Shown piece after piece: positions 2,448 to 21,147 of a stretch of DNA of 24,818 nucleotides; the first letter of the stretch is position 1, and each line of letters opens with the position of its first letter. The notes under the pieces are model-generated. The model saw only the letters and a list, made by a program, of their open reading frames with translations, was not told where the DNA came from and searched no databases. Both the position numbers and the translations under genes were made by a program. Source of the DNA: Candidatus Methylopumilus sp. (GTDB lineage: Bacteria; Pseudomonadota; Gammaproteobacteria; Burkholderiales; Methylophilaceae); NCBI GenBank assembly GCA_041662005.1, contig JBAZTJ010000028.1:1-24818 (forward strand), in the 5' to 3' direction.

Positions 2448-2467
2448 CAAAAGTTCAATAATTTAAG

Positions 2468-2495
2468 TTGGCACTAATATAGCTTTATGTATAAT
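2468..2495 (+). promoter_or_regulatory. Candidate sigma70-type promoter in the AT-rich divergent intergenic region (-35 TTGGCA 2468-2473, 16-nt spacer, -10 TATAAT 2490-2495). It would drive the cytochrome operon.
   Basis: Hexamers read directly from the sequence. The region 2451-2597 is markedly AT-rich relative to flanking genes and lies between divergently oriented ccmI and the 2598 ORF. Confidence 0.3.
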
Positions 2496-2597
2496 AAATG
2501 TCATTACTTGAAACGCGCTTTATATAATAAAAATAAGATTTTAAGTACATGCCTATTTCAACGGGGATCCAGTCTTTTTGGTTAATGATAAAAATAA

Positions 2598-3485
2598 ATG
2601 TATCAAGAAAACGTATTAACCTACAACAACCTCAGATACCTTAAGTGGTCACTGATACTGATTTTGCTCTGTGTCGGCTTTTACATTGCCGAAACGCCCC
2701 CTATCCGCCAGGGAGGCGGCACCTGGCTTGGTTACACATTGGGTACCATAGGCGCAGTCATCATTGTCTGGCTGATGTTTTTCGGGCTCAGGAAGCGCGC
2801 TTATAAATCCAACCTGGGTACCGTGCGTGGCTGGCTTTCCGCCCATATCTACCTTGGCCTGTCGCTCATCGTGATCGCCACCCTGCACGCTGCATTTCAT
2901 TTCGGCTGGAACATACACACGGTTGCTTACATCCTGACCATATCAGTGGTACTTAGCGGGATGTGGGGCGTTGTTATTTACCTCAGGAATCCCATCCTGA
3001 TGAGTAACCTGCTCAATGGCAGGACGCTGGCACAATGTGGCGAAGCCCTGCTTGAGTTTGACGAACAAAGCAGGAAGCTCGCCAAAAGCATGAGCCCGCA
3101 AATACAGAAACTGATTGAGGGCTCGGCTAACGGGCCCATCTTCGCTCACTTCTGGCAACGCTACTTCGGCAAAAACCGCCGTTGCAAGACTGCAAAAGCC
3201 GTCATGCTGCTCACCAAGCACTACTCACAAGCCAAAGTCCAGGAAATATATTCCGATACCGTAGTCCTAAATGCTGCTGAGTTGCATGCGGCGATTGCCA
3301 TGCCGCAAATGCAGGAGGAACTCTACACCTTGCAATTACGGCGCCAGATACAGCTAAACCAGATCCGTGAATACCTGCGCCTGAAAGGCTGGGCCGAAGT
3401 CTGGCTACTGTTTCATGTTCCATTGTCCTTCGGTTTACTGGCTGCGCTCTCCGCGCATATTGTTTCCGTTTTCTTCTACTGGTAA
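2598..3485 (+). CDS. His-rich polytopic inner-membrane protein with about 5 TM helices and a roughly 130-aa soluble loop. It is a possible heme b / quinol-interacting subunit and the first gene of the cytochrome operon.
   Basis: Hydrophobic helices with conserved-looking His residues (SAHIYLGLSLIVIATLHAAFHFGWNIH; LFHVPLSFGLLAALSAHIV). The next gene starts 15 nt downstream. No confident family assignment. Confidence 0.6.
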   Translation: MYQENVLTYNNLRYLKWSLILILLCVGFYIAETPPIRQGGGTWLGYTLGTIGAVIIVWLMFFGLRKRAYKSNLGTVRGWLSAHIYLGLSLIVIATLHAAFHFGWNIHTVAYILTISVVLSGMWGVVIYLRNPILMSNLLNGRTLAQCGEALLEFDEQSRKLAKSMSPQIQKLIEGSANGPIFAHFWQRYFGKNRRCKTAKAVMLLTKHYSQAKVQEIYSDTVVLNAAELHAAIAMPQMQEELYTLQLRRQIQLNQIREYLRLKGWAEVWLLFHVPLSFGLLAALSAHIVSVFFYW

Positions 3486-3500
3486 AGCATCGCTAAGACA

Positions 3501-5156
3501 ATGGCTGAAAAACAAAAAAATGCCCCCTTGATAGAGGAAATCCTCGGCGCGCAAAAGATACGCAAGGGACGGCGTCTGCTGTCGTGGTTTCTTTTCCTGA
3601 CATTGCTGATGGCATGCCTGCTGATTCCTTATGGCGTCTCCATGCACCCTGATGAGGCCGCAACTTTCGTCAAGGAACACCCGTGGGCAGAGCAAACTGT
3701 TAAGCAACTTGCCAAACTGGGTATTACCCCGGCACCCACCAGGAAAATGGATGACGCCAGCATTAACAAAAAGCTGCTCCCATTTACTGCTGATGCGCAA
3801 AACTTTCGCCATACCCGCAGCACCCAACCCGCCTTCCTCAGCCTCGATAAAGTGTGGAACCCGGGACACGAGCTGGATAGTGCCCACAAACCGTGGGCCA
3901 ACGACTGTAAAGTCTGCCACAGCACCCCCTTCGTGCAAGTACAGGACAAAGACTGCCAGAGCTGCCATCGCAATATCGGCGACCACGTAGATCGCAAGAC
4001 AGCGACTGTCAGCGCGCTGGCTGACCAGAAGTGCGCCAGCTGCCACCGCGAACATAACGGCGAAGATAGCCTGGCCAAGCAGAACAAGAGTTACATGACA
4101 GAGAACTGTGCCTCCTGCCACGGCGATATCAAGAAGTCATTCGCAAAAACCAAGACAGGCAATGTCGAGGATTTTGCGACCAAGCATCCTGAGTTCAGGT
4201 ACCAGTTGGCATTGAGCAGCAAACCCAAAGACCTGGAGCGTACCCGCCTGATCAAGGGACAGATGCTCAAGGAAAAAACCGCACTGAAATTCCCGCATGA
4301 CGTTCACCTTAAGGCCGACGGCGTAAAAAGTCCCAAAGGCAAGGTCAAGGTTGAGTGCGCCAGCTGCCACAAACCGAACCCCGATGGCTTGGGCTTCGCT
4401 CAGGTCACCATGAAAGACCACTGCCAGTCATGCCATGACCTCAAGTTCGAACCTGCCGTCTCCAATCGTGAGGTACCGCATGGCTCGGTAGAACTCGTAC
4501 TATCTACCCTGAGGGAGTTCTACAGTTACGTACAGGTCAATGCGGTGCCGATTGATAGCAGTCCGCTGACGGCTCCCATCAACCTGGTACGGCCAGGCAA
4601 GGATTTGCCACGGGTAGCCAGCTTCGTGCACTCCAATGGCAACTCCCGCTCACGGGCTTCCGAGGCGGCAATATCGCTGTTCGAGAAAACCTCCTGCAAA
4701 GTCTGCCATGAGATCAGCCGCGTCAGCGAACCGGGACGCCAAGGCACTAGCGGCCGTGACTTACCACAATGGAAAGTGGCACCGCTAACACCGCGCCACC
4801 CATGGCTGACGCAATCCCAGTTTAACCATGCCAAACACCGCATTGCAGACTGTACGGATTGCCATGCTGCCAACAAATCGAAAAAGGCTGAAGAAGTATT
4901 GATGCCTGCGATCAAGGTTTGTCGCGACTGCCATACCGGCAGCACGCCAGAATCCAACAAACTGGTATCGGATTGCGGCCTGTGTCATGGCTTCCACCTG
5001 CCTGGACACGAAGCCTCCAAAGGCTCAACCAGGCAAGACACCTTAAAAAGCATCATCAAGTCCGCACTTGATAAAACCACCGTGAAACCTGACACCTCAA
5101 CCTCAGGCACCATAAAATCAAGTTCAGCTCAGCTGAATGAAGGAGAAATGCATTGA
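3501..5156 (+). CDS. Decaheme c-type cytochrome built from cytochrome c7/c3-like modules, with an N-terminal membrane anchor or uncleaved signal.
   Basis: 10 CxxCH motifs (CKVCH, CQSCH, CASCH x3, CQSCH, CKVCH, CTDCH, CRDCH, CGLCH). Several have c7-type F-x-H-x-x-H pre-motifs (FPHDVH, FNHAKH). TM segment LLSWFLFLTLLMACLLIPYGV. The stop overlaps the next gene's start. Confidence 0.9.
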   Translation: MAEKQKNAPLIEEILGAQKIRKGRRLLSWFLFLTLLMACLLIPYGVSMHPDEAATFVKEHPWAEQTVKQLAKLGITPAPTRKMDDASINKKLLPFTADAQNFRHTRSTQPAFLSLDKVWNPGHELDSAHKPWANDCKVCHSTPFVQVQDKDCQSCHRNIGDHVDRKTATVSALADQKCASCHREHNGEDSLAKQNKSYMTENCASCHGDIKKSFAKTKTGNVEDFATKHPEFRYQLALSSKPKDLERTRLIKGQMLKEKTALKFPHDVHLKADGVKSPKGKVKVECASCHKPNPDGLGFAQVTMKDHCQSCHDLKFEPAVSNREVPHGSVELVLSTLREFYSYVQVNAVPIDSSPLTAPINLVRPGKDLPRVASFVHSNGNSRSRASEAAISLFEKTSCKVCHEISRVSEPGRQGTSGRDLPQWKVAPLTPRHPWLTQSQFNHAKHRIADCTDCHAANKSKKAEEVLMPAIKVCRDCHTGSTPESNKLVSDCGLCHGFHLPGHEASKGSTRQDTLKSIIKSALDKTTVKPDTSTSGTIKSSSAQLNEGEMH

Positions 5157-7078
5157 GTCCTTTTGTATTGCCTTGCCCACGCGCACTACTCCTCGCCCTG
5201 CTCAGCACTTTGCTGGTCGCTTGCGGCGGTGGAGGCAGCGCTAGCAGTTCATCCTCCAGCAGCGTCAATTGCAGCTTCCCGATAGCCAGCACACCGCAGT
5301 CATTAACTGCGGCTGAAACCGAACGCATTATTGCCCAGGCCGAGCAGGCTGCCATGAGTGTTGGGGCACAGGCAACCATTGCAGTCGTCGACCGCGTTGG
5401 TAACGTATTGGGTGTTTACAACACAGCCGGCAATGCTGCAGCGACTGTCAACCTGCGCAGCGGCAGGGCACTTACCAGCTTTCCACAGGGTCTGGATGGA
5501 TTGGACAACACCATTCCCGCCTCTTTGGCAGCCATTGCCAAAGCCGTTACTGGCGCCTATCTATCCTCCTCTGGCAATGCATTCAGCACACGCACTGCCA
5601 GCTATATCATCCAGGAACATTTTCCACCGACGGTGGATTTCCAGGCTGGCGGTCCGTTGTTTGGTGTGCAGTTCAGCCAGCTGCCTTGTGGTGATTTCGT
5701 TACCCGCGGCATAGGGGCAACCACCGGACCAAAACGCTCGCCTCTTGGGCTTGCCGGCGATCCTGGCGGCTTCCCGATATATAAGAATGGCGTAGTGGTC
5801 GGCGGCATTGGCGTAATGTCTGATGGCGTTTATGGCATTGATTTGAACCCTGTTGCCGGCACTACAGACAGCGATGAAAGAATTGCGCAGTCCGCACTGG
5901 CTGGCTTTCAGGCTCCGGATTGCATACGTGCCAATCGAATTACACTGGGCGGCCAAACCCCGAGTTATAGCAATGCGGATAATGCATTGGTCTCCGTTAG
6001 CTCAACCACAGTGAATGCGGCTAACTTTATCGCAGTGCCAAGCTACTTCACCGCAGGGGCAGCGCTGGCGGGTAGAGCGTATGGCAATGCCGACTCCGGA
6101 TTTACCGCCGATGGCAGCGGAACCCTTGGCGCTGGTGCGTTTGTAGTCACCAACGGTGCGGCCAACCGATTTCCGGCCGTTGCATCCACCACCCCCGCAC
6201 CGGCAACTGGCTTGAGTGTCCCTGAAGTAACACAGATCATCAGCTCAGCCATAGGTGTCGCCAACCAGGCACGTGCACAGATTCGCCGCCCGCTCAACTC
6301 CCCGGCTCAAGTCACCGTTTCGGTAGTTGACCTTGACGGCAATGTATTAGGTGTTGCAAGAACGCCTGACGCGCCTGTCTTTGGGGCTGATGTTTCATTA
6401 CAAAAAGCCCGAACAGCCGCATTCTTCTCAAGCGCTAATGGAGGTGCCACGATCAATGCTCAATCGAACGTGACCTACCTGCTGGCAGGCCCTACTATTA
6501 CTTTAAGCAGTTACGTATCTGCTTCCAACACCTTTGGCAGCACAGGTTTCACCGGAACCACGGCATTCTCTGCGCGAGCCATAGGCAACATTGCACGGCC
6601 GTTTTTCCCCGACGGTATCAACGGGGCACCTAATGGCCCGCTATCAAAGCCAATTAATATATGGAGCCCTTTCAGTACAGGCTTGCAACTCGACCTTGTT
6701 TACAACGCGTTAACCTTTGCAATTCTTAATCCTGCCGATGCAAATGCCGACTGCAGCGCATCGCCGCCAGCAGCAGGAATAGGCCGCATTCAAAATGGTA
6801 TCCAGATATTCCCGGGCGGCGTCCCCATCTACCGCGGCAGCACTTTAATTGGAGCGATCGGCGTCTCTGGCGACGGCGTAGATCAGGATGACATGATTGC
6901 ATTCCTCGGCTTGAGCCGTGCTGGCACTGCGCTTGGTAACGTTATAGGCAATGCCCCATCGGGTATCAGAGCCGACACTCTGAGTATTCCTGGACAAAGT
7001 TCAGGTTTACGTTACGTTAACTGCCCGCAATCGCCCTTTATTAACAGCAATGCCCAGAACGTCTGCGCAGGGATTTAA
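5153..7078 (+). CDS. Lipoprotein with two tandem GlcG/DUF336 (HbpS-like heme-binding) domains and a poly-Ser linker. It is translationally coupled through a TTG start.
   Basis: Lipobox LLVAC-GGGG. Two copies of the DUF336 signature: ATIAVVDRVGNVLGV...GGFPIYKNGVVVGGIGVMSDG and VTVSVVDLDGNVLGV...SLQKARTAAFF...GGVPIYRGSTLIGAIGVSGDGVDQDDMIAFLGL. RBS AGGAG 7 nt upstream of TTG 5153. Confidence 0.85.
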   Translation: MSPFVLPCPRALLLALLSTLLVACGGGGSASSSSSSSVNCSFPIASTPQSLTAAETERIIAQAEQAAMSVGAQATIAVVDRVGNVLGVYNTAGNAAATVNLRSGRALTSFPQGLDGLDNTIPASLAAIAKAVTGAYLSSSGNAFSTRTASYIIQEHFPPTVDFQAGGPLFGVQFSQLPCGDFVTRGIGATTGPKRSPLGLAGDPGGFPIYKNGVVVGGIGVMSDGVYGIDLNPVAGTTDSDERIAQSALAGFQAPDCIRANRITLGGQTPSYSNADNALVSVSSTTVNAANFIAVPSYFTAGAALAGRAYGNADSGFTADGSGTLGAGAFVVTNGAANRFPAVASTTPAPATGLSVPEVTQIISSAIGVANQARAQIRRPLNSPAQVTVSVVDLDGNVLGVARTPDAPVFGADVSLQKARTAAFFSSANGGATINAQSNVTYLLAGPTITLSSYVSASNTFGSTGFTGTTAFSARAIGNIARPFFPDGINGAPNGPLSKPINIWSPFSTGLQLDLVYNALTFAILNPADANADCSASPPAAGIGRIQNGIQIFPGGVPIYRGSTLIGAIGVSGDGVDQDDMIAFLGLSRAGTALGNVIGNAPSGIRADTLSIPGQSSGLRYVNCPQSPFINSNAQNVCAGI

Positions 7079-7080
7079 TC

Positions 7081-9138
7081 GTGAACATACCTAAAAAATA
7101 TCTGCTGACGATTATCAATGCCGCGCTGATGGCATCCCTGGCACAACCGGCGTTTGCAGAGGAGCAGCCAGCAAAGGCCCAACCCGCAGGCATCCAATTA
7201 CAGGTGCTGTCGCCAACGATCAAGGTCTATGCATCCCCGCAGGCCGATGCTCTTTTGCTGTACGAAATCCCCAAAGGCAATTTGCTGGATGTGATCGAGC
7301 AGCAGGGTAACTGGTTCAAGATCAAGGTCAACTCCTACCAGGAGTTTGGCTGGGTGCGTCAGGAGCCCTGGGAGTATGGCGAACTGACGCTTTCGGTGCT
7401 GCCGAATAAAGGCGAGGTGAGTTATGCGCAAGAGCAGGTTGGCGCTACAGCACCTGAGGATGCGCCACAAACCAGGCAGTTTCAACCGGCAAAACCGAAT
7501 GTGATTGCCACATTGCCCCCGATCGACTCAGAACAGGTACCAGCGCCCAGCCCCAACCTGCCTCGCGAAACCATCCCTATCCAGGATCGCTGGCGCATCA
7601 TGCAGGCGCTGGGTTTCAAGTTTCCGTGGTATGACCCGTTTAACCAGAATCACTTGAAGGGCGATTTACCCGTACTTAAGGAATGGGGCGAAGACCTGTT
7701 CTTTAACTTGGGCGTGATCTCCGACACGGTAATCGAGTCCAGAAGAGTGGCGACGCCTGTCGCCAACCAGGTTTCAACTGGGCCTGGGGCTAACAACACT
7801 TACGGCGGTAGCGAGCAATTCATCTTCAACCAGAACCTGATTCTGAGTTTTAGCCTGACCAAGGGCAATACTACATTCAAACCGCCTGAGTATGAATTCA
7901 GGTTTGTGCCGGTGCTGAATTACAACTTTGCCGATGTGAAAGAAGCAGGCGTGTTGAATGCCGACCCCAGAAAAGGCACGACCCGCGAAGATGGCTTTGT
8001 CGGCGTGCAGGAACTGTTTGCCGACGTGCATTTGCGCAATGTGTCGGATCGCTATGACTTCGACAGTATCCGTGTAGGCATACAGCCTTTCATCAGCGAT
8101 TTCAGGGGTTTCCTGTTCCAGGATACGCCGTTCGGTGTGCGTCTATTCGGCAACCGCGCTAACAACCGTTACCAGTACAACGTGGCCTGGTTCCGCCGTA
8201 TGGAAAAAGATACCAACAGCGGCCTCAATGATGTGGGGCAGAGCCTGCGCAACGACGACATTTATGCTGCCAATCTGTATATGCAGGATTTCCCGGCACG
8301 TGGCTTTACTTCGCAAGTCTCGGTTACGCACAACCGTAATAACGAAAAGCAGCGCGAGTACGACACTAACGACTTTCTGGTGCGGCCTGCATTGCTGGGC
8401 GACTTACGCCCGCATTCTTATGAAGTCACCTATCTGGGTTATACCGGTGACGGCCATTTCGGAAAATGGAGCCTCTCCACATCCAGCTACCTGGCCGTTG
8501 GTAGCGATTCACGCAGCCCGATAGCGCAAACCAAACAGGATATTTTTGCGGGTTTCCATGCCTCCGAGTTGGCGCGCGACTTCGACTGGATACGTTTGCG
8601 AGGCAACCTGTTATTAGCCTCCGGTGACAAGAATCCTTACGATGACAAATCTACCGGCTTTGACGCTATTCTGGAAAACCCGCAGTTTGCCGGCGCATCC
8701 ACCAGCTATTACATACGTCAGAGCATCCCCCTCATTGGTGGCGGTGGCGTTGGACTATCAGGACGTAACGGTTTGCTGCCCTCTTTGCGGTCTTCGCCCA
8801 TCCAGGGACAATCCAATTTCGCCAACCCTGGCCTGGTGCTATTAGGGCTTGGCGCCGACTTTGACCTGGGCCCGCAGCTCCGCGTGTTTGGCAATATCTC
8901 CGACCTGCATTTCATGAACACCTCTTCGCTAGGCGTGTTGCGCAACGAGGAAATCCCGTCGAAACATCTTGGTGTAGATGCTTCGGTAGGCTTCCACTGG
9001 CGGCCCTTGTTTAACCAGAACATTATCATCAACGGTTCGATGGGCGCTTTAATGCCGGGTGATGGTCTGAAGCAGTTATACGGTAATGACCAGAGCACTT
9101 TGTATTCCGCATTAATCAATGCCTTGATTACTTACTAA
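7081..9138 (+). CDS. Outer-membrane beta-barrel protein with an N-terminal SH3b-like domain. It is a candidate porin/sheath partner for the adjacent cytochromes.
   Basis: GTG start with AGGGA RBS. Signal peptide ...ASLAQPAFA-EE. SH3b-like IQLQVLSPTIKVYASPQADALLLYEIPKGNLLDVIEQQGNWFKIKV. About 520 aa of alternating hydrophobic/beta-rich sequence, ending in an aromatic residue (…ALITY). Confidence 0.75.
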   Translation: MNIPKKYLLTIINAALMASLAQPAFAEEQPAKAQPAGIQLQVLSPTIKVYASPQADALLLYEIPKGNLLDVIEQQGNWFKIKVNSYQEFGWVRQEPWEYGELTLSVLPNKGEVSYAQEQVGATAPEDAPQTRQFQPAKPNVIATLPPIDSEQVPAPSPNLPRETIPIQDRWRIMQALGFKFPWYDPFNQNHLKGDLPVLKEWGEDLFFNLGVISDTVIESRRVATPVANQVSTGPGANNTYGGSEQFIFNQNLILSFSLTKGNTTFKPPEYEFRFVPVLNYNFADVKEAGVLNADPRKGTTREDGFVGVQELFADVHLRNVSDRYDFDSIRVGIQPFISDFRGFLFQDTPFGVRLFGNRANNRYQYNVAWFRRMEKDTNSGLNDVGQSLRNDDIYAANLYMQDFPARGFTSQVSVTHNRNNEKQREYDTNDFLVRPALLGDLRPHSYEVTYLGYTGDGHFGKWSLSTSSYLAVGSDSRSPIAQTKQDIFAGFHASELARDFDWIRLRGNLLLASGDKNPYDDKSTGFDAILENPQFAGASTSYYIRQSIPLIGGGGVGLSGRNGLLPSLRSSPIQGQSNFANPGLVLLGLGADFDLGPQLRVFGNISDLHFMNTSSLGVLRNEEIPSKHLGVDASVGFHWRPLFNQNIIINGSMGALMPGDGLKQLYGNDQSTLYSALINALITY

Positions 9139-9196
9139 CCAGGCACTGATTAAACCGGCGCAGTCATTAGATCCAGTGCAATTACCCAATTATTAA

Positions 9197-12100
9197 ATGA
9201 GAAGTATGCTTTTTAATCACTCTTTAAAGTCTAGCGTTTATCGTGCCGGTTCGATTGTTGCGCTTGCGTTCCTGGTCCTGTTGCCCATCAACGGGATTTC
9301 ATCGGAGGAGCATCTAACGCATCGCGATTACACGGTAGCGCCTGATGCGCCAAAAACGCAGACGGAAGCAGCTGCTAAAGAGAAATCTGACGGCTGCATG
9401 AGTTGCCATAGCGCGACAGACAGACACACCATGCACGCCAACCCTGGCGTCATTATTGGCTGTACCGACTGTCATGGCGGCAATGCTGCCGTGGCTGTTA
9501 ATAAACATGTCAGTGAGGGTGACCACAAAGCTGCAGAGTATCGCGAAGCCATGGAAAAAGCCCACGTGTTGCCGCGTGATGAGAAATTGTGGAGCTCCTC
9601 GGCAAACCCCCAGGTTTCCTATGCCAGGCTCAACAAAGAGCACCCAGCCTTTATCCGCTTTATCAACCCTGGCGACTTGCGCATAGCACGCCAAGCCTGC
9701 GGCAGCTGCCATTTGCCTATCATCCAGGCACAAGAACGCAGCCTGATGTCGACATCTGCCATGCTGTGGGGCGGTGCCGCCTACAACAACGGCATACTGC
9801 CTTACAAGCGATATATCATCGGTGAGGCATACACCCATGATAGTGAGCCGGCGGCGCTTGTTAACCCGATCAAGCCAGACAATGATTTATTCATGTTCAA
9901 AGGCATACTGGACAGGCTCTACCCATTGCCTGCCTGGGAAACCATTCCCCCCGCCGATATTTTTCGGGTGTTCGAACGGGGCGGCCGCGTCATCAACAGC
10001 ACCTTCCCCGAAGTTGGTTTGCCTAACAGCTCCGGCACGCTGCAAAAACTGGATGAACCGGGTCGTCCCGATATCAAGCAATCCAACCGCGGGCCGGGCA
10101 CCGGCAGCAACATCGCCGTGCCTGTTATCAATATCACCAAAACCCGTTTGAATGACCCGCACCTGTGGTTTCTCGGCACTAATGAGCAAGCGGGCGATTA
10201 CCGCTCATCCGGCTGTAGCGGCTGCCATAGCATCTATGCCAATGACCGTGACCCTTTGCACTCAGGCCCTTATGCCAAGTTTGGCAACAGTGGCAGCACG
10301 CAGACCATAGACCCCACGATTCCCAAAGACGAATCCGGCCACCCGCTCAAGCATGAATTTACGCGCGCCATTCCATCCTCACAGTGCATGGTCTGCCATA
10401 TGCACCAGCCCAATATTTTCGTGAATTCGTTCTATGGCTACACCATGTGGGATTACGAATCCGATGCGCCCAGTATGTGGCCGGAAAAACAGACATACCC
10501 TACCGATGCCGAGATACGCGCCATCAACGAGCGCAACCCTGAGGAAGCAGCCATCCGCGGTAAGTGGAGCGACCCGGATTTCCTGAAAAATGTCTCCACC
10601 CTCAACCCCACGCTCAAAGACACGCAATTTGCCGACTATCACGGGCACGGCTGGAACTTCCGCGCGATTTTCAAGCGCAACCGCAAGGGCGCACTGCTGG
10701 ATGCCAAGGGTAATATCGTCGATGACAATGATCCCAAGAAATTCAGCAAAGCCGTACACCTCAGCTCTATCCACATGGATATCGGCATGCAGTGCGTGGA
10801 CTGCCACTTCGCGCAGGACATGCACGGCAATGGCCATATCTATGGTGAAGTAGCGGCGGCGATTGAGGTCGACTGTTCCGACTGCCACGGCACCGCGACC
10901 ACCTACCCTACCCTGCACACCTCCGGCCCGGCCGCACGCCCGGGTGGCTTGGACCTGACCACCCTCACCACGCAGGATGGACGTCGCCGCTTTGAATGGA
11001 TAGATGGCAAACTGATCCAGCGCTCAGCCATTGACCCCAACAAAGAATGGGAAATGTCGCTGGTGAAAGATACCGTCAACCCCAACCACCCAAAATACAA
11101 TGCCAAGGCGGCACGTGCCAAGTTGATGGGCGCCGGCGAAGAAGGACAACAAGGGCAATGGGGGCTGGGAGTCAAAAAGCTCGCGCATGACAACAGCAAG
11201 ATGACCTGCTTTACCTGCCATTTATCATGGACCACCAGCTGCGCCGGTTGTCATTTGCCGATACAGGCCAACTGGAAAACAGAGCGTCACCATTATGAAG
11301 GCGGCGAGACCAGAAATTACGCCACCTACAACCCGCAAGTAGCGCGCGATGAAATGTTCCAGCTCGGCCTGAGCGGACCGGTGAAAGGGTCCAAGGTCAC
11401 CCCTGTGCGCTCCAGTTCGGCGCTGATCCTGTCCTCGACCAACAGCAATCGCGAGCGGATTTATATCCAGCAGCCGCCTATCGCTGCCAGTGGTTTCTCA
11501 TCGCAGGCTTTTGCCCCGCACTACCCGCATACCGAGCGCAAGGAAGAAACCAAGACCTGCACCGACTGCCATGTCTCCAAAGACAATGACAACAACGCCA
11601 TCATGGCGCAGCTGCTGCTACAGGGCACCAACTTCGTCAATTTTGTCGGCTTCAACGCATGGCTGGGCGAAGCGCATCATGTCGAAGCAGTCACCGTGAC
11701 CGAGTGGGACGAGCCCCAGGCGGTGATCGGCAGTTATCTGCAACGCTACGCTTACCCGGATTACTTCAAGGCGCATCAGGATCGCAAGCTGGAGCTGCCT
11801 GAAGCCTTTGATCATGGCGCCGCCGATAATGTTAACTGCCTGCAGATGCGCGGCGAGTATCTTTACGCGGCCGAAGGCAAAGGCGGTTTCCGCGTTTACG
11901 ATATTGCCAATATTGGTAATAAGGGTGTAGCCCAGCGCATCATCACCGCACCATTTTCATCGATAGGCCAGGACACGCACGTAGCCAGCAAAAATGCCAC
12001 CTGCATGGCATTGCCCACCAATCAGTCGATTGCACCCTCCAGGAATCCGGATGAAAGCAAGGACAAAGCACGCTTTGAGCTGATGCGTAAAACTAATCAG

Positions 12101-13039
12101 GAGCAGGCCTTCCACCCCATCTACCACTACGCCTTCATCACCGATGCCGTAGAGGGACTGATTGCCGTGGATGTGGACACGCTGGCGGATGGCGAACCCC
12201 GCAACAACTTCCTCAAGCGCGCTGTCACCTGGAACCCGGATGGCCTGCTCAACAATGCGCGCCACATTACCCTGGGCGGGCATTACGCCTATGTCGCCAC
12301 TCCCAAGGGCATGGTGATTCTGGACCTGGATAATCCGCTCAAGCCTAAACACATCAAGACCATCGCGCTGGATGATGTCAGAGGCTCAGCAGTGCAGTTC
12401 CGCTACCTGTTTGTAACCGACCCCAGCGGGTTGCGGGTGGTGGATATTACCAAGCCGAAAGAGCCTGTTTTGTTACCGGCACAGATTCCACTGGCCAATG
12501 CACAAAAACTCTATCTCGCCAGAACCTATGCCTACGTAGCAGCGGCCGAGCAAGGCCTGGCTATCATTGATATCGAGAAGCCGGAAAGCCCTGTCGTTTA
12601 TCAGATGTACACCGCGGACGGCAAACTCAATGACGCACGTGATGTGGTTGTAGGCACCACTAACGCCTCACTATTTGCCTATGTGGCTGACGGTAAAAAT
12701 GGCCTGAAAGTCGTACAATTGACAGCACCGGATACGCAACCGCGCTTCTACGGTTTTTCACCGGACCCCAAGCCCAACCTAATTGCCTGGCGCAATACCC
12801 AGTCAGCAGCGCTGGCAGTTTCCAAGGGGCTGGACCGTGACCGCGCAGTAGATGAAACCGGGCACCAGATCGCCGTATTCGGGCGCATCGGGTCACGGCC
12901 ATTCAACCGCAGTGAGATGGATAAGCTCTATATGCGCCCGGATGGCAATATATGGACAGTCAGTGACAAACCTAACGATAAAGACATGATTCCTAAAAAA
13001 TCAGCCAAGCCAGCGCCCTCGCAGGAGCAGATTCGATAA
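9197..13039 (+). CDS. Large secreted decaheme c-type cytochrome fused to a C-terminal LVIVD-repeat beta-propeller.
   Basis: Signal peptide. 10 CxxCH motifs spread over about 790 aa (CMSCH, CTDCH, CGSCH, CSGCH, CMVCH, CVDCH, CSDCH, CFTCH, CAGCH, CTDCH). The C-terminal ~480 aa carry at least 6 LVIVD-type repeats (GGFRVYDIANIG, GLIAVDVDTLADG, GMVILDLDNPLKP, GLRVVDITKPKEP, GLAIIDIEKPESP, GLKVVQLTAPDT). Confidence 0.9.
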   Translation: MRSMLFNHSLKSSVYRAGSIVALAFLVLLPINGISSEEHLTHRDYTVAPDAPKTQTEAAAKEKSDGCMSCHSATDRHTMHANPGVIIGCTDCHGGNAAVAVNKHVSEGDHKAAEYREAMEKAHVLPRDEKLWSSSANPQVSYARLNKEHPAFIRFINPGDLRIARQACGSCHLPIIQAQERSLMSTSAMLWGGAAYNNGILPYKRYIIGEAYTHDSEPAALVNPIKPDNDLFMFKGILDRLYPLPAWETIPPADIFRVFERGGRVINSTFPEVGLPNSSGTLQKLDEPGRPDIKQSNRGPGTGSNIAVPVINITKTRLNDPHLWFLGTNEQAGDYRSSGCSGCHSIYANDRDPLHSGPYAKFGNSGSTQTIDPTIPKDESGHPLKHEFTRAIPSSQCMVCHMHQPNIFVNSFYGYTMWDYESDAPSMWPEKQTYPTDAEIRAINERNPEEAAIRGKWSDPDFLKNVSTLNPTLKDTQFADYHGHGWNFRAIFKRNRKGALLDAKGNIVDDNDPKKFSKAVHLSSIHMDIGMQCVDCHFAQDMHGNGHIYGEVAAAIEVDCSDCHGTATTYPTLHTSGPAARPGGLDLTTLTTQDGRRRFEWIDGKLIQRSAIDPNKEWEMSLVKDTVNPNHPKYNAKAARAKLMGAGEEGQQGQWGLGVKKLAHDNSKMTCFTCHLSWTTSCAGCHLPIQANWKTERHHYEGGETRNYATYNPQVARDEMFQLGLSGPVKGSKVTPVRSSSALILSSTNSNRERIYIQQPPIAASGFSSQAFAPHYPHTERKEETKTCTDCHVSKDNDNNAIMAQLLLQGTNFVNFVGFNAWLGEAHHVEAVTVTEWDEPQAVIGSYLQRYAYPDYFKAHQDRKLELPEAFDHGAADNVNCLQMRGEYLYAAEGKGGFRVYDIANIGNKGVAQRIITAPFSSIGQDTHVASKNATCMALPTNQSIAPSRNPDESKDKARFELMRKTNQEQAFHPIYHYAFITDAVEGLIAVDVDTLADGEPRNNFLKRAVTWNPDGLLNNARHITLGGHYAYVATPKGMVILDLDNPLKPKHIKTIALDDVRGSAVQFRYLFVTDPSGLRVVDITKPKEPVLLPAQIPLANAQKLYLARTYAYVAAAEQGLAIIDIEKPESPVVYQMYTADGKLNDARDVVVGTTNASLFAYVADGKNGLKVVQLTAPDTQPRFYGFSPDPKPNLIAWRNTQSAALAVSKGLDRDRAVDETGHQIAVFGRIGSRPFNRSEMDKLYMRPDGNIWTVSDKPNDKDMIPKKSAKPAPSQEQIR

Positions 13040-14382
13040 TGAAAACACTACAGAGACTCAGCATAAAACTATGGCTGGCCACTAGCCTACTTTTGAGTCT
13101 GGCCACCAGCGCCCATGCCACCATGCCCAACCTGTCGCATGACCAGACAGTGGGTTCGGTAAATTGTGCGAACAGCTTTTGCCACGGCTCGATAACGCAT
13201 TGGGATGAATCCAATGTGCTGCAGAATGAATACACCACCTGGGAGCGTCTGGACCGGCATACCCAAACCTACCAGGTATTGCTCAACAAGCAATCCAAGC
13301 TGATCGCCAAAAACCTGGGCCTGAAAAAACCTGCCCATGAGTCCAAAGTCTGCCTGGATTGCCATGCGCATAACCCGGCTGCGGATCAACGCGGCGAACG
13401 TTTCATCATGAGCGAAGGCGTGGGCTGCGAGGGTTGCCATGGCCCGGCCGGACGCTGGATCAAGTCGCACACGCTGGCGGGCGCCAGCCATGCCGACAAC
13501 ATTGAAAACGGACTTTACCCGACTGACTCGCCTGTAGCGCAGGCCAAGCTTTGCCTGTCTTGCCATTTTGGCGACCAGAACCGCTTTATCACCCACCGCA
13601 TCATGGGGGCCGGGCATCCACGCATCTCTTTTGAACTGGAGACCTTTACTGCCATCCAGCCCGCCCACTTCCGTATCGATGATGATTGGCACAAACGTAA
13701 AGGGGATTACAACCCGATCAAGGTCTGGGCCATTGGCCAGGTCATCGCCTCACAGCAGTTGCTGAATGCGTTTGCCGACCCTAAGCTGGGACGGGACGGC
13801 ATCTTCCCCGAACTGGTATTGTTTGATTGCCATGCCTGCCACCACCCCATGAGCGAGAAAAAATGGACACCGCGCCTGGGCGTTGGCCCTGGCCGTATCC
13901 GCCTGAATGACAGCAACCTGCTGATGCTACGTGCCATTGTGCGAGTGGTCGATGCCAGCAATGCAGCAGAATTTAACAAGCGCATCATGCAGATGCACCA
14001 GGCAGTTTCTGGTAATGGCGACCCTACCGGCATCAGCCCGACCGAGTCTGCGCAAAAGGTAGCGGCATCGCTGGAAACCTACGTTACGCTGATCAAAAAC
14101 CAGAGCTTCAACCTGCCGCAGCTCAAGCAGGTGTATCAGGCTTTGATTGATGAAGCGATTGATGGCCAGTTCTCGGATTATGCTGGCGCTGAGCAAGCCT
14201 ATATGGCCATCTCCAACCTGTCGCTGTCATTGGCAAAAATGGGCGGATTGAAGTCAGCGCCAGAGGTGAATCGCCAGTTGGCAAACATGCGTAAAACGCT
14301 CACCAATGACGAAACGTACCAACCCAAAGTATTTGCCAAACAATTGGCTGATTTGAAATATACCGTATCGCAAGCGAGGTAA
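13039..14382 (+). CDS. Periplasmic pentaheme c-type cytochrome (c554/NrfB-like motifs) with a heme-free helical C-terminal domain. Its start overlaps the upstream stop (TAATG).
   Basis: Signal peptide ...ATSAHA. 4 CxxCH motifs (CLDCH, CEGCH in GVGCEGCHGPAG, CLSCH, CHACHH) plus one CX4CH (CANSFCH). RBS GGAG upstream. Confidence 0.85.
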   Translation: MKTLQRLSIKLWLATSLLLSLATSAHATMPNLSHDQTVGSVNCANSFCHGSITHWDESNVLQNEYTTWERLDRHTQTYQVLLNKQSKLIAKNLGLKKPAHESKVCLDCHAHNPAADQRGERFIMSEGVGCEGCHGPAGRWIKSHTLAGASHADNIENGLYPTDSPVAQAKLCLSCHFGDQNRFITHRIMGAGHPRISFELETFTAIQPAHFRIDDDWHKRKGDYNPIKVWAIGQVIASQQLLNAFADPKLGRDGIFPELVLFDCHACHHPMSEKKWTPRLGVGPGRIRLNDSNLLMLRAIVRVVDASNAAEFNKRIMQMHQAVSGNGDPTGISPTESAQKVAASLETYVTLIKNQSFNLPQLKQVYQALIDEAIDGQFSDYAGAEQAYMAISNLSLSLAKMGGLKSAPEVNRQLANMRKTLTNDETYQPKVFAKQLADLKYTVSQAR

Positions 14383-14385
14383 GCC

Positions 14386-16884
14386 ATGAGTCAGCCCAAT
14401 ATCAATCCGAGCAAAAGTAGCCATGCAGACATGCTGTTTGCCGAGGCGGAAGCGCAATACGACATTATTATCGTAGGCTCAGGCCCGGCAGGGCTTTCCG
14501 CCGCGGCACATGCCAAGGCATTGGGCGCCAGCCATCTACTGCTGGAAGCAGAAAGCCACACGGCAGATACCATCTACAAATATCAGAAACGTAAACACGT
14601 GATGGCTGAGCCCGGCATCATCCCATTACGCTCAGACCTCAAGTTTGCTGAGGGCCTGCGCGAGACAGTCCTGCAAAACTGGGATGATGGAATCACAGGC
14701 CTTGGTGTCAATATTGAGTATGGCAAGCGTGTTAATTTCCTGCAACGCGACGAAGCCAGCCGCACCTTTACTATCAAGTGCGAGGACGGGAGCGAATATA
14801 CCTCACGCACCGTTGTTCTCGGCATTGGCCTGCAAGGCAACCTGCGCAAACTGGGTGTGCCAGGTGAACATGCGCAGAGCGTGCAATACACCCTATCCGA
14901 CCCAGATGAATTCAAGGGTGAAACCATCATCGTGATTGGCGCTGGTGATGCCGGGATTGAAAATGCACTCGCCTTGATGGGACAGAACACCGTTTACATC
15001 CTTAACCGCCAAACCGAATTTGCGCAGTGCAAAGAAGGCAACCGCAATTTAATTACCAAAGCGGAAAAGTCAGGCAGTATCAACGTACGCTACAGCGCCA
15101 ACACGGTGCGTATTGATGAGGCCGACCGCAGCACCAACAAAGATTTACCACCGTATATTTTCGTTTTCAACGACAAAGACGGTGAAGCTGCCGTGCCTTG
15201 CCATCGGGTAATTGCACGTCTGGGTGCTACAGCCCCGCGCAAGCAGGTGGAAAGCTTCGGCATCAAATTCCCGAATGACAACCCGGCATCTGTGCCGGTG
15301 CTGTCAGAGCGCTACGAGTCCAATGTGCCCGGCTTGTTCATCGTCGGTGCGCTGGGTGGTTACCCACTGATCAAGCAGGCCATGAACCAGGGTTACGAGG
15401 TAGTGGAAACCATCCTTGGTCGTGAAATCGAGCCTGTCGATGAACCACTATTAAAAAATAAAATCCGGCCATGGCGGCCATTATCGACCGTCTCGGAAGC
15501 GCTGGACTTCATACTCCACGGAGTACCGCTGTTCCAGGCCATGTCCAAGCTGCAACTGCGCGAATTCATGCTGGACTCGACCATACTGACGCCACGTAAA
15601 GGCTCGGTTGTCTTTAAAAAGCTGGACTATACCAACACTTTCTTCTCCATTGTGGAAGGCGATGTAGAAGTCGAGATTGAAGACAAGGATGGCAAGAAAA
15701 AACGGATCAAGCTGCCCACAGGCTCCTTCTTTGGTGAAATGGGGCTGATTTCCGGTCGACGCCGCACCGCTACCGTATTTGCCGGCGAACGCTGCGTGCT
15801 GCTGGAAACCCCCCGTAATACCATGCTGCGCCTCATTGCCGCAGTGGATGATGTGCGTCGCCAGATTGATGAATCTTTCCTGCGCAATGCGATTTACAAC
15901 TACATTGGCCCCATGCTGAGCCGTGAAGCCGTGGATGCGCTGGTCAACAGCGGGGTAGAAAAACGCAAATACCAGGCTAACCAGGTGCTGTTCAGTGAGG
16001 GCGATGATGCTGATGGTTTGTATCTGGTGCGTAGTGGCTCGCTGACCGTATCCAAAGTCATCGATAACCAGGAAAAAATCCTGTCCTACGTTTCTGCCGG
16101 CAATTACGTCGGAGAAATGGCACTGGTCAACAACTCCAAACGCACCGCCACAGTAAAAGCTGCCGTGTATACCGAGGTTTTGGTACTCAAGGCCGATGCC
16201 TTCAAGCAACAGCTTGCCCTCAATCCCGCATGGCGCCAGGCTATCGAAAGCGTGATGGCGGAACGTACCCGTGCCAACGTAATGGCCACCGAAAAAACCG
16301 GCCAGGAAAGCGACTTGATACGCTTCATGCTCAAGCAAGGCCTGGGCGAGGCTTCTGATGTACTCATCATCAACGAGTCCATGTGCATCCAATGCAATAA
16401 CTGTGAAACCGCGTGTGCCGAAACGCACAAAGGTACCTCACGCCTGAAACGGGAGGCTGGCCCTTCTTTTGCCAACTTCCACCTGCCCGTAGCTTGCCGC
16501 CATTGCGAAAATCCCAGCTGCATGAAGGATTGCCCACCGGATGCGATTACCCGCTCCAAGGAAGGCGAAGTGTTCATCAGCGATGCTTGTATAGGTTGCG
16601 GCAATTGTGAGCGTAATTGCCCTTATGGCGTGATCCAGATGGCTGTACAAAAACCGCCGAAAATGGGTGCCAACATGCTCTGGCTGTTATTTGGCCTAGG
16701 CGCAGCCCCTGGTGAGAGGCAGCCGGATTATGACCCGAATGCCGCCAAAAAAGCCGTCAAATGTGACCTGTGCTCCGGCCAGAGTGGTGGCCCGGCATGC
16801 GTGCGGGCATGCCCTACCGGTGCCGCCATACGCACATCGCCGGAAAAAATCTTTAAACCCATCAGCATGGGCTTTGATGAATAA
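14386..16884 (+). CDS. Multidomain redox protein: a TrxR-like FAD/NAD(P)-binding oxidoreductase lacking the CxxC, two cyclic-nucleotide-binding domains, and two 2x[4Fe-4S] ferredoxin domains. Predicted soluble.
   Basis: GxGxxG (VGSGPAGLSAAAHA) and a second Rossmann motif (VIGAGDAGIE). cNMP-binding signatures FFGEMGLISGRRRTATVFA and YVGEMALVNNSKRTATVKA. Cys clusters CIQCNNCETAC / CRHCENPSC..DCP / CIGCGNCERNCP / CDLCSG...CVRACP. Strong RBS GAGGTAA. Confidence 0.9.
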   Translation: MSQPNINPSKSSHADMLFAEAEAQYDIIIVGSGPAGLSAAAHAKALGASHLLLEAESHTADTIYKYQKRKHVMAEPGIIPLRSDLKFAEGLRETVLQNWDDGITGLGVNIEYGKRVNFLQRDEASRTFTIKCEDGSEYTSRTVVLGIGLQGNLRKLGVPGEHAQSVQYTLSDPDEFKGETIIVIGAGDAGIENALALMGQNTVYILNRQTEFAQCKEGNRNLITKAEKSGSINVRYSANTVRIDEADRSTNKDLPPYIFVFNDKDGEAAVPCHRVIARLGATAPRKQVESFGIKFPNDNPASVPVLSERYESNVPGLFIVGALGGYPLIKQAMNQGYEVVETILGREIEPVDEPLLKNKIRPWRPLSTVSEALDFILHGVPLFQAMSKLQLREFMLDSTILTPRKGSVVFKKLDYTNTFFSIVEGDVEVEIEDKDGKKKRIKLPTGSFFGEMGLISGRRRTATVFAGERCVLLETPRNTMLRLIAAVDDVRRQIDESFLRNAIYNYIGPMLSREAVDALVNSGVEKRKYQANQVLFSEGDDADGLYLVRSGSLTVSKVIDNQEKILSYVSAGNYVGEMALVNNSKRTATVKAAVYTEVLVLKADAFKQQLALNPAWRQAIESVMAERTRANVMATEKTGQESDLIRFMLKQGLGEASDVLIINESMCIQCNNCETACAETHKGTSRLKREAGPSFANFHLPVACRHCENPSCMKDCPPDAITRSKEGEVFISDACIGCGNCERNCPYGVIQMAVQKPPKMGANMLWLLFGLGAAPGERQPDYDPNAAKKAVKCDLCSGQSGGPACVRACPTGAAIRTSPEKIFKPISMGFDE

Positions 16885-20433: not shown

Positions 20434-21147
20434 ATGGCTAATAGCAACTATACGGTACTTATTACAGGCGCCAATCGTGGCCTGGGCCTGGAGTTCACCC
20501 GGCAATACGCAAACGATGGCTGGCAGGTGATTGCCTGCTGCCGTGACCCGGAATCGGCAACCGCCCTCAATACGCTGGCTGCTTCGACAGGCAATACACC
20601 AGCTCGACCAATCGAAGTACGGAAATTGGATGTCAACGACTTTGCGCAGATAGACCAGTTGGCCCAGCAACTCAGCGGACAGAAGATAGATTTGCTTATC
20701 AACAATGCAGGTGTTTACCCGCAAAGCGCTTGGGGGCACATCGACTATGAAGCGTGGGCGCAGGCATTCAAGATCAACACCATGGCGCCATTGAAAATGG
20801 CCGAGGCTTTTGTTGAGCATGTGGCAGCCAGCCAGCTCAGGAAAATCGTCACCCTCAGCAGCAAAATGGGCAGCATGGACGACAATACCAGCGGCGGTAG
20901 CTACCTGTATCGCACCAGCAAAGCTGCAGTCAATATGGTGATGAAAAGCCTGGCAATAGATCTTAAACCGAGAGGGATTGCTTCAACCATACTTCACCCC
21001 GGCTGGGTGCAAACCGATATGGGTGGCCCCAACGGGCTGATCAATACCGAGCAGAGCGTTACCGGTTTACGTAAAGTGATAGAGCAGCTAACACTGGGAA
21101 ACAGCGGTAGATTCATGGCCTATGATGGCAAGGACATTCCCTGGTAA
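20434..21147 (+). CDS. Short-chain dehydrogenase/reductase, CsgA/sniffer-like SDR subfamily.
   Basis: TGANRGLGLE cofactor motif, NNAG, catalytic YRTSK, HPGWVQTDMGG. RBS AAGGAAA. Confidence 0.85.
   Translation: MANSNYTVLITGANRGLGLEFTRQYANDGWQVIACCRDPESATALNTLAASTGNTPARPIEVRKLDVNDFAQIDQLAQQLSGQKIDLLINNAGVYPQSAWGHIDYEAWAQAFKINTMAPLKMAEAFVEHVAASQLRKIVTLSSKMGSMDDNTSGGSYLYRTSKAAVNMVMKSLAIDLKPRGIASTILHPGWVQTDMGGPNGLINTEQSVTGLRKVIEQLTLGNSGRFMAYDGKDIPW

Follow-up and report, generated by a model that had tools for sequence, protein, structure and literature searches.

Putative porin-cytochrome clusters designated PCC3 and PCC4 were proposed on bioinformatic grounds by He, Barco, Emerson and Roden in 2017 (Front Microbiol 8:1584; PMC5566968). 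The inner-membrane protein of these clusters has about 300 amino acids (aa) and five transmembrane (TM) helices, carries WX3HX13H motifs on TM3 and TM5 and an SGXXG motif on TM4, and was likened to a ferric-reductase domain. In the PCC4 proposal, it reduces quinone in a system that oxidizes Fe(II). The PCC4 hosts, found in water filters and at marine sites, were Alpha-, Gamma-, and Zetaproteobacteria, and in the PCC4 of Oceanospirillum beijerinckii an iron-sulfur (FeS) gene is fused with the membrane-protein gene (PMC5566968). Here, we analyze a seven-gene operon (g1 to g7; positions 2598 to 16884, + strand) in a 24,818-nucleotide (nt) stretch of DNA from Candidatus Methylopumilus sp. (contig JBAZTJ010000028.1, assembly GCA_041662005.1; "the window" denotes this whole stretch). 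Compared by published description only, PCC4 very probably belongs to the same superfamily, of which the window operon is a sister architecture.

The data support the view that the seven genes encode a single conserved redox system with parts in the cytoplasm, inner membrane, periplasm, and outer membrane. The reading that we regard as most plausible, without counting it as probable, is that of a cyclic nucleoside monophosphate (cNMP)-gated, NAD(P)H-fed electron-export chain that ends at a periplasmic heme enzyme, g5, whose substrate arrives through the outer-membrane barrel g4. The ferredoxin-NADP reductase (FNR)-like flavin domain of g7 would take electrons from NAD(P)H and pass them through four [4Fe-4S] clusters to g1, which would act as a di-b-heme relay to the periplasmic decaheme protein g2. 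The flux would be gated by the two cNMP domains of g7 and, in most relatives, also by a forkhead-associated (FHA) domain on g2. The c554-like pentaheme protein g6 would be the soluble carrier of electrons to g5, the putative terminal oxidoreductase, which would reduce a soluble substrate or shuttle. The g4 channel would admit this substrate or shuttle to the periplasm and house no cytochrome, and g3 would be an accessory protein of tetrapyrrole-binding type on the periplasmic side. On balance, electrons from NAD(P)H would move outward to an acceptor beyond the cytoplasm, bypassing the quinone pool, and the system would be a split, heme-extended analogue of the NOX/ferric-reductase or Fre-MsrQ systems.

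The resemblance to PCC4 extends to several features. The g1 protein has five TM helices, two WX3HX13H motifs, and SGXXG; the porin gene g4 is clustered with multiheme genes (g2, g5, and g6), including that of a 10-heme protein, and with g7, whose FeS part matches PF13247 (36.4 bits versus a 26.2-bit cut-off). In two relatives, the PF13247 Fe-S gene adjoins (locus L079) or is fused with (locus L083) the membrane-protein gene, and L083 also shares with PCC4 a redox gene upstream of a tetraheme gene and mixed gene directions. The heme complement differs, however, being 4/5/10 in PCC4 and 10, 10, and 4+1 here, and the text of PMC5566968 makes no mention of a propeller, a GlcG protein, or SH3, cNMP, or FAD domains. 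No Hyphomicrobium or Mariprofundus names were found among the matches listed, including those of a search seeded with an alphaproteobacterial barrel.

The first-pass annotation had, to the best of its knowledge, called this set of domains undescribed. That was too strong, as the motif family and the PCC4 cluster were defined in 2017 with a description that fits the operon's relatives (PMC5566968). What appears to be new is the set of propeller cytochrome, GlcG partner, and cNMP-gated flavoprotein, while the membrane-protein family and a similar PCC4 cluster had already been flagged. A literature search on the propeller cytochrome, the GlcG partner, and the cNMP-gated flavoprotein found no paper describing the cluster in the library searched; an apparent match to DUF336 proved to concern DUF3365.

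The operon was also said to follow the logic of the MtrCAB, MtoAB, and PioAB conduits while lacking the compact MtrA/MtrB/MtrC architecture. As in those systems, decaheme cytochromes are encoded together with an outer-membrane barrel and a lipoprotein, and the logic runs from inner to outer membrane. None of these three architectural features was found, as claimed: the compact decaheme form of MtrA/DmsE (~300 to 350 aa) is absent, with TIGR03508 giving 28.6 bits for g2 and 21.3 bits for g6 versus a cut-off of 192.2; g4 is modeled with 18 strands and not as an MtrB-type barrel of ~26 strands that sheathes a cytochrome; and in place of an MtrC/OmcA surface lipoprotein there is g3, which has no CxxCH motif, the only TIGR03507 match being g2 at 16.8 versus 209.3 bits. 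Input would also differ, coming here from a cytoplasmic flavo-FeS protein and not from a quinol dehydrogenase. More generally, homology searches placed no gene of the operon in a characterized operon, and NCBIfam matches were all below threshold.

Two other systems were compared. The extHIJKLMNOPQS genes of Geobacter, which are linked to selenite and tellurite, encode a small substrate-type porin (ExtI), several multiheme proteins, and a membrane cytochrome b (PMC5877670). The g5 protein has a partial match to ExtM (E = 8e-16), but at 57 bits versus an 800-bit cut-off; no rhodanese, Rieske, or selenoprotein is encoded here, and the porin and membrane proteins are different. The Uet cluster of Tenderiales was rejected as a relative, having an undecaheme protein, NHL propellers, a 28-strand barrel, and a cupredoxin.

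Organization and conservation of the operon

The seven co-directional open reading frames (ORFs) lie exactly where the first-pass annotation had placed them, and the gaps and overlaps that it described were confirmed. From g1 to g7, the intergenic distances are 15, -4, 2, 58, -1, and 3 nt, with g2 and g3 overlapping in TTGA (5153 to 5156) and g5 and g6 in TAATG (13037 to 13041). The proposed total of 25 c-heme sites and at least four FeS clusters is likewise correct at the level of sequence, with 10 c-heme motifs in g2, 10 in g5, and 5 in g6, and with 16 conserved Cys residues in g7, enough for four [4Fe-4S] clusters. The heme counts of 10/10/4+1 are invariant across 49 to 66 homologues. Within the 147-nt AT-rich gap upstream of g1 lies the best sigma-70-like promoter match, TTGGCA-16-TATAAT (2468 to 2495, + strand), a consensus match only, at 11 of 12 positions. 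Promoter-like sites in the region did not in total exceed the shuffled expectation, and the 22 terminator-like sites, versus 16.3 ± 3.9 in shuffled sequence, show no clear excess.

The family is large. Related protein clusters number at least 6627 for g4 and at least 7951 for g5, and they bear only the names "hypothetical," "SH3 domain-containing," "LVIVD repeat-containing," or "multiheme c-type cytochrome." When one genome was scanned for each species, at least 576 stretches were confirmed, and the family occurs in several hundred genomes of Beta-, Gamma-, and Alphaproteobacteria, each representing a species. Host lineages were taken from the best 80 of these stretches. They comprise Methylophilaceae, Undibacterium, Duganella, Limnobacter, Rhodoferax, Usitatibacter, and a Ferrovum metagenome-assembled genome (MAG); Lysobacter, Arenimonas, and Silanimonas; Moraxellaceae, Halieaceae, and Sulfuriflexus; and several Alphaproteobacteria. 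These hosts are mostly aerobic heterotrophs and methylotrophs.

A gene-neighborhood search found that gene order is conserved. The order 1-2-3-4-5-6-7 is identical in 23 of the 36 loci with enough flanking sequence (from Beta- and Gammaproteobacteria), and the remaining 13 mostly have the same genes rearranged, with g7 moved ahead of g1. Marine gamma- and alphaproteobacterial loci have the order g7-g1-g2-g3-g4-g5(-g6). A metagenome contig that is 93 to 100% identical to the window (L001) has the same layout, including the ccm operon and the GGDEF genes that flank it. This arrangement is not due to chance. The closest complete genome, the 1.64-Mb chromosome of Methylophilaceae bacterium MMSCM63 (L002, 5545 to 17331), keeps g1 to g6 at 71 to 86% identity but lacks g7, and the genes directly after g6 are thiamine and other housekeeping genes. 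On the megaplasmid pMSHV of Sphingobium herbicidovorans (L082, NZ_CP020539.1), the genes are arranged as g6-g3-g4-g5 and, convergent to this unit, g7-g1-g2, which points to a two-module structure of the system. The system is carried on plasmids or chromids of ~0.4 to 1.3 Mb, namely pMSHV and 12 other Sphingobium and Sphingopyxis plasmid records; pMSHV was typed as conjugative by MOB-suite, and two-partner-secretion (ShlB/FhaC) genes flank its two operons.

The inner module: g1, g2, and g7

The 295-aa inner-membrane protein g1 (2598 to 3485, + strand) has five TM helices. Its motifs are W79-x3-H83-x13-H97 on TM3, S120-G121-x2-G124 on TM4, and W269-x3-H273-x13-H287 on TM5. The motif residues, S120 included, are kept in at least 90% of 61 homologues, and W79, H83, H97, W269, H273, H287, G121, and G124 are invariant in an alignment of 21 sequences (A3). 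The earlier description of g1 as His-rich does not hold, since there are only 9 His residues in 295 aa, though five are invariant and four of these lie within the two HX13H motifs. The positive-inside rule puts H83 and H273 close to the cytoplasm and H97 and H287 close to the periplasm. Such a placement, with one pair at either side of the membrane, is the geometry of a two-heme transmembrane relay, and g1 is predicted to bind two b-hemes, one near each face, that relay electrons across the membrane. A loop of ~135 aa between TM4 and TM5 is probably cytoplasmic. Pfam gave only a weak cytochrome b561 match (PF01292, E = 0.0014), and a profile search of the PDB found no relative of g1.

The likeness of g1 to NOX, ferric-reductase (FRD), and MsrQ proteins is one of motifs (He et al.). 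In g1, a spacing of ~13 residues within each His pair, with the pairs on separate TM helices, fits two bis-His b-heme sites, as does the predicted topology. Like NOX and the Fre-MsrQ-MsrP system, the operon would carry electrons from NAD(P)H and flavin in the cytoplasm to an acceptor outside it, under tight regulation. It differs in having five helices in g1 versus six, a four-cluster ferredoxin domain between flavin and hemes, and a chain that extends via 25 c-hemes.

The g2 gene (3501 to 5156, + strand) encodes a 551-aa decaheme c-type cytochrome, anchored in the inner membrane as first proposed. It has 10 CxxCH motifs, all kept in 66 homologues, and a single N-terminal TM helix (residues 24 to 49), with the rest of the protein facing the periplasm. 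A weak match to the pentaheme domains II/IV of MtrC/MtrF was seen, and searches of the PDB with g2 and g6 gave marginal relatives only (E ≥ 0.0015).

The 832-aa cytoplasmic protein g7 (14386 to 16884, + strand) is the flavo-FeS protein with cNMP domains that had been predicted, matching Pyr_redox, cNMP_binding (two domains), and Fer4. It combines a thioredoxin reductase (TrxR)/FNR-like FAD and NAD(P)H domain with a tandem pair of cNMP-binding domains and a polyferredoxin like HycB that carries four Cys motifs. The corresponding PDB matches are ferredoxin-NADP reductases of TrxR type, regulatory subunits of protein kinase A (tandem cNMP domains), and the four-cluster ferredoxin HycB. Both dinucleotide-binding motifs are present in g7, the redox CxxC of true thioredoxin reductases is missing, and there is no export signal.

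The strongest evidence that these parts act together comes from gene fusions, which argue for an inner chain of FAD domain, FeS domain, membrane protein, and cytochrome. The distant relative L083 (ENA ERZ25039587 contig_93723, 2409 to 7204), whose barrel is 42% identical, has two fusions. The first is an 814-aa protein with two cNMP domains, a 4Fe-4S domain, and a membrane domain bearing two WX3HX13H motifs and SGxxG. The second joins a g2-like multiheme part to a C-terminal FAD domain, with a TM helix, 8 or 9 heme motifs, and a second TM helix; its ORF runs upstream of the called start (open from 4688). L079 has two genes in place of g7, one for the FAD-cNMP part and one for the FeS part, immediately ahead of g1.

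Parts of this module may also have been seen in iron oxidizers. A trio listed for Gallionella, consisting of a multiheme cytochrome, a membrane protein, and an ~800-aa redox protein, has no porin, and its sizes match those of g2, g1, and g7 (PMC5566968, Table S6). Hoover et al. described a "Forkhead-associated" 10-heme protein (10 CXXCH) in 27 Gallionellaceae iron oxidizers, which most likely belongs to the g2 family.

Several features point to regulation of this chain from the cytoplasm. The cNMP domains are found in every g7 examined, between the flavin and FeS parts. An FHA-like cytoplasmic N terminus is present on 43 of 66 g2 homologues, with Pfam confirmation in L072 (5753 to 7513); the window copy is without it. 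In Halieaceae loci, genes for a PP2C phosphatase and a double-FHA protein follow g6 (L074, 16744 to 18848). Beside the cluster in several unrelated lineages are genes of CHASE2 class III cyclases, class II cAMP phosphodiesterases, and a calcineurin-like phosphoesterase (a metallophosphoesterase). The sites of these cyclic-nucleotide turnover genes are L016 (19776 to 22010, - strand), L075 (18360 to 20618, + strand), L003 (19828 to 20598, - strand), L054 (15 to 1670), and L082 (16996 to 17844, - strand). Such neighbors would fit local cNMP control of g7.

The outer module and the flanking genes

The g3 gene (5153 to 7078, + strand) encodes a 641-aa protein with the lipobox LVAC followed by GGGG, a Gly/Ser-rich linker, two HbpS-like/GlcG stretches (PF03928, E = 3.2e-20), and no c-heme motif. 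Its PDB relatives are EfgA/GlcG, the PduO C-terminal domain, and a putative extracellular heme-binding protein, and PGAP names the Sphingobium orthologue "heme-binding protein." The first-pass description as an outer-membrane-type lipoprotein with two GlcG domains is right for the window and for most lineages. It does not extend to Rhodospirillaceae-type loci, where a plain (non-lipoprotein) signal peptide makes the protein soluble in some Alphaproteobacteria, or to two complete distant variants from which g3 is missing (L084 and the P0428 contig). In the distant locus L085 (7863 to 11761; JGI 3300015615), a barrel gene with 36% identity is divergent to a gene for an HbpS-like protein, with no cytochrome genes nearby and peptidase genes flanking the pair. 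This suggests that g3 and g4 can form a stand-alone outer-membrane module. Since g3 is soluble or absent in some lineages and is paired with the barrel without cytochromes in L085, it is probably an accessory partner of the barrel that faces the periplasm.

The 685-aa outer-membrane protein g4 (7081 to 9138, + strand) has a signal peptide and, in agreement with the first annotation, an N-terminal SH3b-like domain and a barrel. The SH3_3 match (E = 5.6e-6; 26.9 bits versus a 27-bit cut-off) recurs in 18 of 20 homologues, and the C-terminal residue is aromatic. The AlphaFold2 (AF2) model (pLDDT 62.5) has the SH3b-like domain at residues ~38 to 108, a linker at 112 to 198, an 18-strand barrel at 206 to 684, and a 70-aa loop at 514 to 584. 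The linker is conserved although it is modeled as disordered, and the loop is conserved too. Within these regions, residues ~145 to 200 (window 7500 to 7680) are Pro-rich with an invariant DRWR before strand 1, and residues 514 to 584 (window 8620 to 8830) are Gly-rich; both stretches are highly conserved with low AF2 confidence, and they could be a plug or docking site. The model is that of an AlgE/OprD-like channel and not an MtrB-like sheath. The g4 model shares the 18-strand monomeric barrel fold of AlgE, while identity to AlgE and OprD (Occ) proteins is 8 to 14%, and g4 adds the SH3b-like domain, the conserved N-terminal linker, and the 70-aa loop. Membership of the Pfam family Alginate_exp was rejected, with 0 of 20 family members matching at E ≤ 1 and no polysaccharide genes recurrent nearby. 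In sequence and profile searches of the PDB, neither g4 nor g5 had relatives.

In every architecture seen, distant ones included, g4 is directly followed by g5 (9197 to 13039, + strand). This 1280-aa protein is, as proposed, a decaheme cytochrome with a C-terminal LVIVD beta-propeller (E = 1.7e-19); it has a Sec signal, no lipobox, and a domain of ~780 aa with the 10 CxxCH motifs ahead of the propeller. With 62 to 86% identity, g5 is the most conserved component. Median identities to the window copy in Beta-, Gamma-, and Alphaproteobacteria are 72, 63, and 64% for g5, 59, 55, and 53% for the barrel g4, and 39, 35, and 31% for g2. In the heme domain, the share of columns with at least 95% identity among 65 sequences is 29 to 54%; in the distal propeller blades it is zero. 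This pattern looks typical of an enzyme or a hub with several partners, as opposed to a fast-evolving surface cytochrome, and g5 may be likened to an enzyme rather than a wire because it is as conserved as a housekeeping enzyme. A Foldseek search with the propeller, which AF2 models confidently, found generic propellers only.

The 447-aa periplasmic protein g6 (13039 to 14382, + strand) is a pentaheme cytochrome, also as first annotated, with four CxxCH motifs and one CX4CH (C43-C48-H49), all five kept in 49 homologues. Its N-terminal part is c554-like (PF13435, E = 1.1e-7) and is joined to a non-heme C-terminal domain; matches to cytochromes c552 and c554 are weak.

Do g4 and g5 then form a true porin-cytochrome conduit, as the first-pass annotation had suggested and as He et al. 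put forward for PCC4? In such an arrangement, g4 together with g5 and/or g3 would span the outer membrane and exchange electrons directly with insoluble or chelated metals, humics, or electrodes. The barrel gene always adjoins a multiheme gene, which is the hallmark that defines PCC clusters, the component set from inner to outer membrane is complete, and ccm genes are co-located. Precedents for small barrels are the Cyc2 model and the predicted Omb model of Geobacter. Relatives occur in the Ferrovum MAG, and the g2 family in the 27 Gallionellaceae iron oxidizers; LVIVD repeats have been found in surface proteins (PMC2447325). Against these points, an 18-strand AlgE/OprD-like barrel is too narrow for an MtrA-like cytochrome, neither barrel nor lipoprotein has a heme motif, g3 is dispensable or soluble in some lineages, and known surface cytochromes are far less conserved than g5. 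For the most part, moreover, the hosts are heterotrophs and methylotrophs with an aerobic lifestyle and no known extracellular electron transfer. Type II secretion genes, which would also suit a surface location, adjoin the cluster in L073, but they are not recurrent neighbors. What survives of the earlier claim is a conserved multi-compartment redox system, whereas the housekeeping-like conservation of g5 and the narrow barrel make the conduit itself doubtful, if still the leading alternative. In L073, an alphaproteobacterial MAG, the type II genes (gspG, a gspF-like gene, and gspE) lie just upstream of g3-g4-g5 (1374 to 4727, - strand), and among the neighbors in other loci no such recurrence was found.

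The immediate context of the operon is less constant than its content. The first-pass annotation had pointed to ccm genes upstream and two c-di-GMP cyclases downstream, and both are present. A cytochrome c maturation gene identified by domain searches (CcmI/CycH; 1152 to 2450, - strand) is divergent from g1, and ccm genes are the only recurrent flanking genes (9 to 21 loci, depending on the ccm gene). The two diguanylate cyclase genes, which are context only, encode a response-regulator GGDEF protein (16923 to 18680, + strand) and a 7TMR-DISM GGDEF protein (18767 to 20404, + strand). This pair is not conserved, being next to the cluster only in the window and in the near-identical contig L001, and it was rejected as part of the system. 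A CxxCH motif (CRYCH) at residue 8 of the 7TMR-DISM protein (window 18767 to 18810), within the predicted signal or first hydrophobic region, is probably fortuitous. Further downstream are genes for an SDR oxidoreductase (20434 to 21147), a FadL/TodX-type outer-membrane transporter (21158 to 22465, - strand), an SPFH/band-7 protein with a long coiled-coil tail (22729 to 24174), and the C-terminal end of PEP carboxylase (24228 to 24710, - strand), none of which seems to be related to the operon. No Rfam family had a match in the window.

Direction of electron flow and meaning of the system

The two-module composition and the chain from FAD through FeS clusters and membrane protein to cytochrome are the best-supported parts of the export reading; confidence is lower for the placement of g5 in the periplasm and for the direction of flow. 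On standard bioenergetics, the outward direction is the most likely one, because inward transfer to NAD(P)+ (-320 mV) against an inside-negative potential needs a donor of very low potential. Outward flow would be downhill, would be aided by the membrane potential, and would dissipate it, so that tight cNMP/FHA gating would plausibly be needed. Gene content, motifs, synteny, and fusions are matters of direct observation, and the barrel fold comes from modeling.

Several points weigh against electron export to a periplasmic enzyme. We infer cofactor binding, the direction of flow, the periplasmic location of g5, and the gating. The catalytic site of g5 comes from conservation alone, as AF2 models the heme domain at pLDDT <50, and the barrel model of g4 is only moderately confident (pLDDT 62.5). 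The g1 protein gave no match to the FRD domain PF01794 and has no detectable homology to the NOX/FRD or MsrQ families. Scans of 250 nt upstream in 61 loci for Fur, FNR, CRP, ArcA, OxyR-like, NsrR, and IscR consensus sites found none enriched over shuffled sequence, so regulatory motifs gave nothing that points to a substrate. Given LVIVD repeats in cell-surface proteins and the type II secretion genes at L073, g5 could be exported. Finally, the closest complete genome, L002, has g1 to g6 without g7; the system can thus do without NAD(P)H input via g7, and quinones might be the partners of g1, in line with the proposal of He et al.

This last point leads to the opposite direction of flow, in which g5 would oxidize Fe(II), Mn(II), or a reduced nitrogen or sulfur donor and electrons would pass from g5 to g6, g2, and g1 and on to quinone or g7, as from HAO through c554 to cM552. 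An enzyme-like octa- or decaheme protein with a small shuttle and a membrane-anchored multiheme protein resembles the hydroxylamine module. The g6 protein is c554-like, and both g5 and g6 match the c552/c554 family; the likeness to HAO-c554-cM552 is nevertheless one of layout only (enzyme-type multiheme protein, c554-like shuttle, and membrane-anchored multiheme protein), and there is no signature of HAO or NrfA (no CxxCK and no PDB match). The system occurs in iron-oxidizer lineages, and in the scheme of He et al. a donor is oxidized and the membrane protein serves as a quinone-active cytochrome b (PMC5566968). Set against this, the FeS-membrane protein fusion in L083 and the almost constant presence of g7, L002 notwithstanding, point to a cytoplasmic partner and not to quinone. 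Reduction of NAD(P)+ from outside would be energetically unfavorable with Fe(II) or Mn(II), and cytoplasmic cNMP/FHA gating suits the control of an NAD(P)H drain better. Most host lineages found are also heterotrophs or methylotrophs not known as lithotrophs. We consider inward oxidation improbable.

Very improbable, in turn, is tetrapyrrole or iron acquisition, in which g4 and g3 would import heme or iron chelates and the cytochromes would drive reductive release like yeast FRE: the HbpS/GlcG family does include heme-binding and heme-degrading proteins, L085 has the g3-g4 pair without cytochromes, g1 has ferric-reductase-like His motifs, and the hosts include planktonic bacteria of waters that are possibly iron-poor, but Fur-box-like sequences upstream of the 61 loci have a mean best match of 10.3, equal to the shuffled 10.3, 25 c-hemes are a costly route to iron, g3 is absent from some complete variants, and no TonB-dependent or ABC uptake genes are recurrent nearby.

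Returning to electron export, we tentatively propose a new class of electron-export machine, in which a cNMP-/FHA-gated, quinone-independent NOX-like module would feed 25 c-hemes and end in a universally conserved 10-heme/propeller enzyme with an AlgE-like channel. It would give aerobic Proteobacteria, including genome-streamlined freshwater methylotrophs, a low-potential extracytoplasmic reductase. Thousands of barrel and 10-heme protein clusters now labeled "hypothetical" are concerned, including those of the cultured, potentially tractable Duganella, Janthinobacterium, Limnobacter, Undibacterium, and Sphingobium.

The results also revise the PCC4 model. The gene fusion indicates that the partner of the membrane protein is a cytoplasmic FeS domain and not necessarily quinone, and on the evidence of the model the "porin" would be a narrow substrate channel rather than a cytochrome sheath. 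Caution is warranted in using such clusters as metagenome markers of iron oxidation or extracellular electron transfer. If the export reading is true, the inner module would be a bacterial counterpart of NOX and ferric reductases, with electron export that bypasses the quinone pool. To our knowledge, such bacteria have only high-potential ubiquinone, and the system would explain how low-potential chemistry can take place outside the cytoplasm in ubiquinone-only bacteria.

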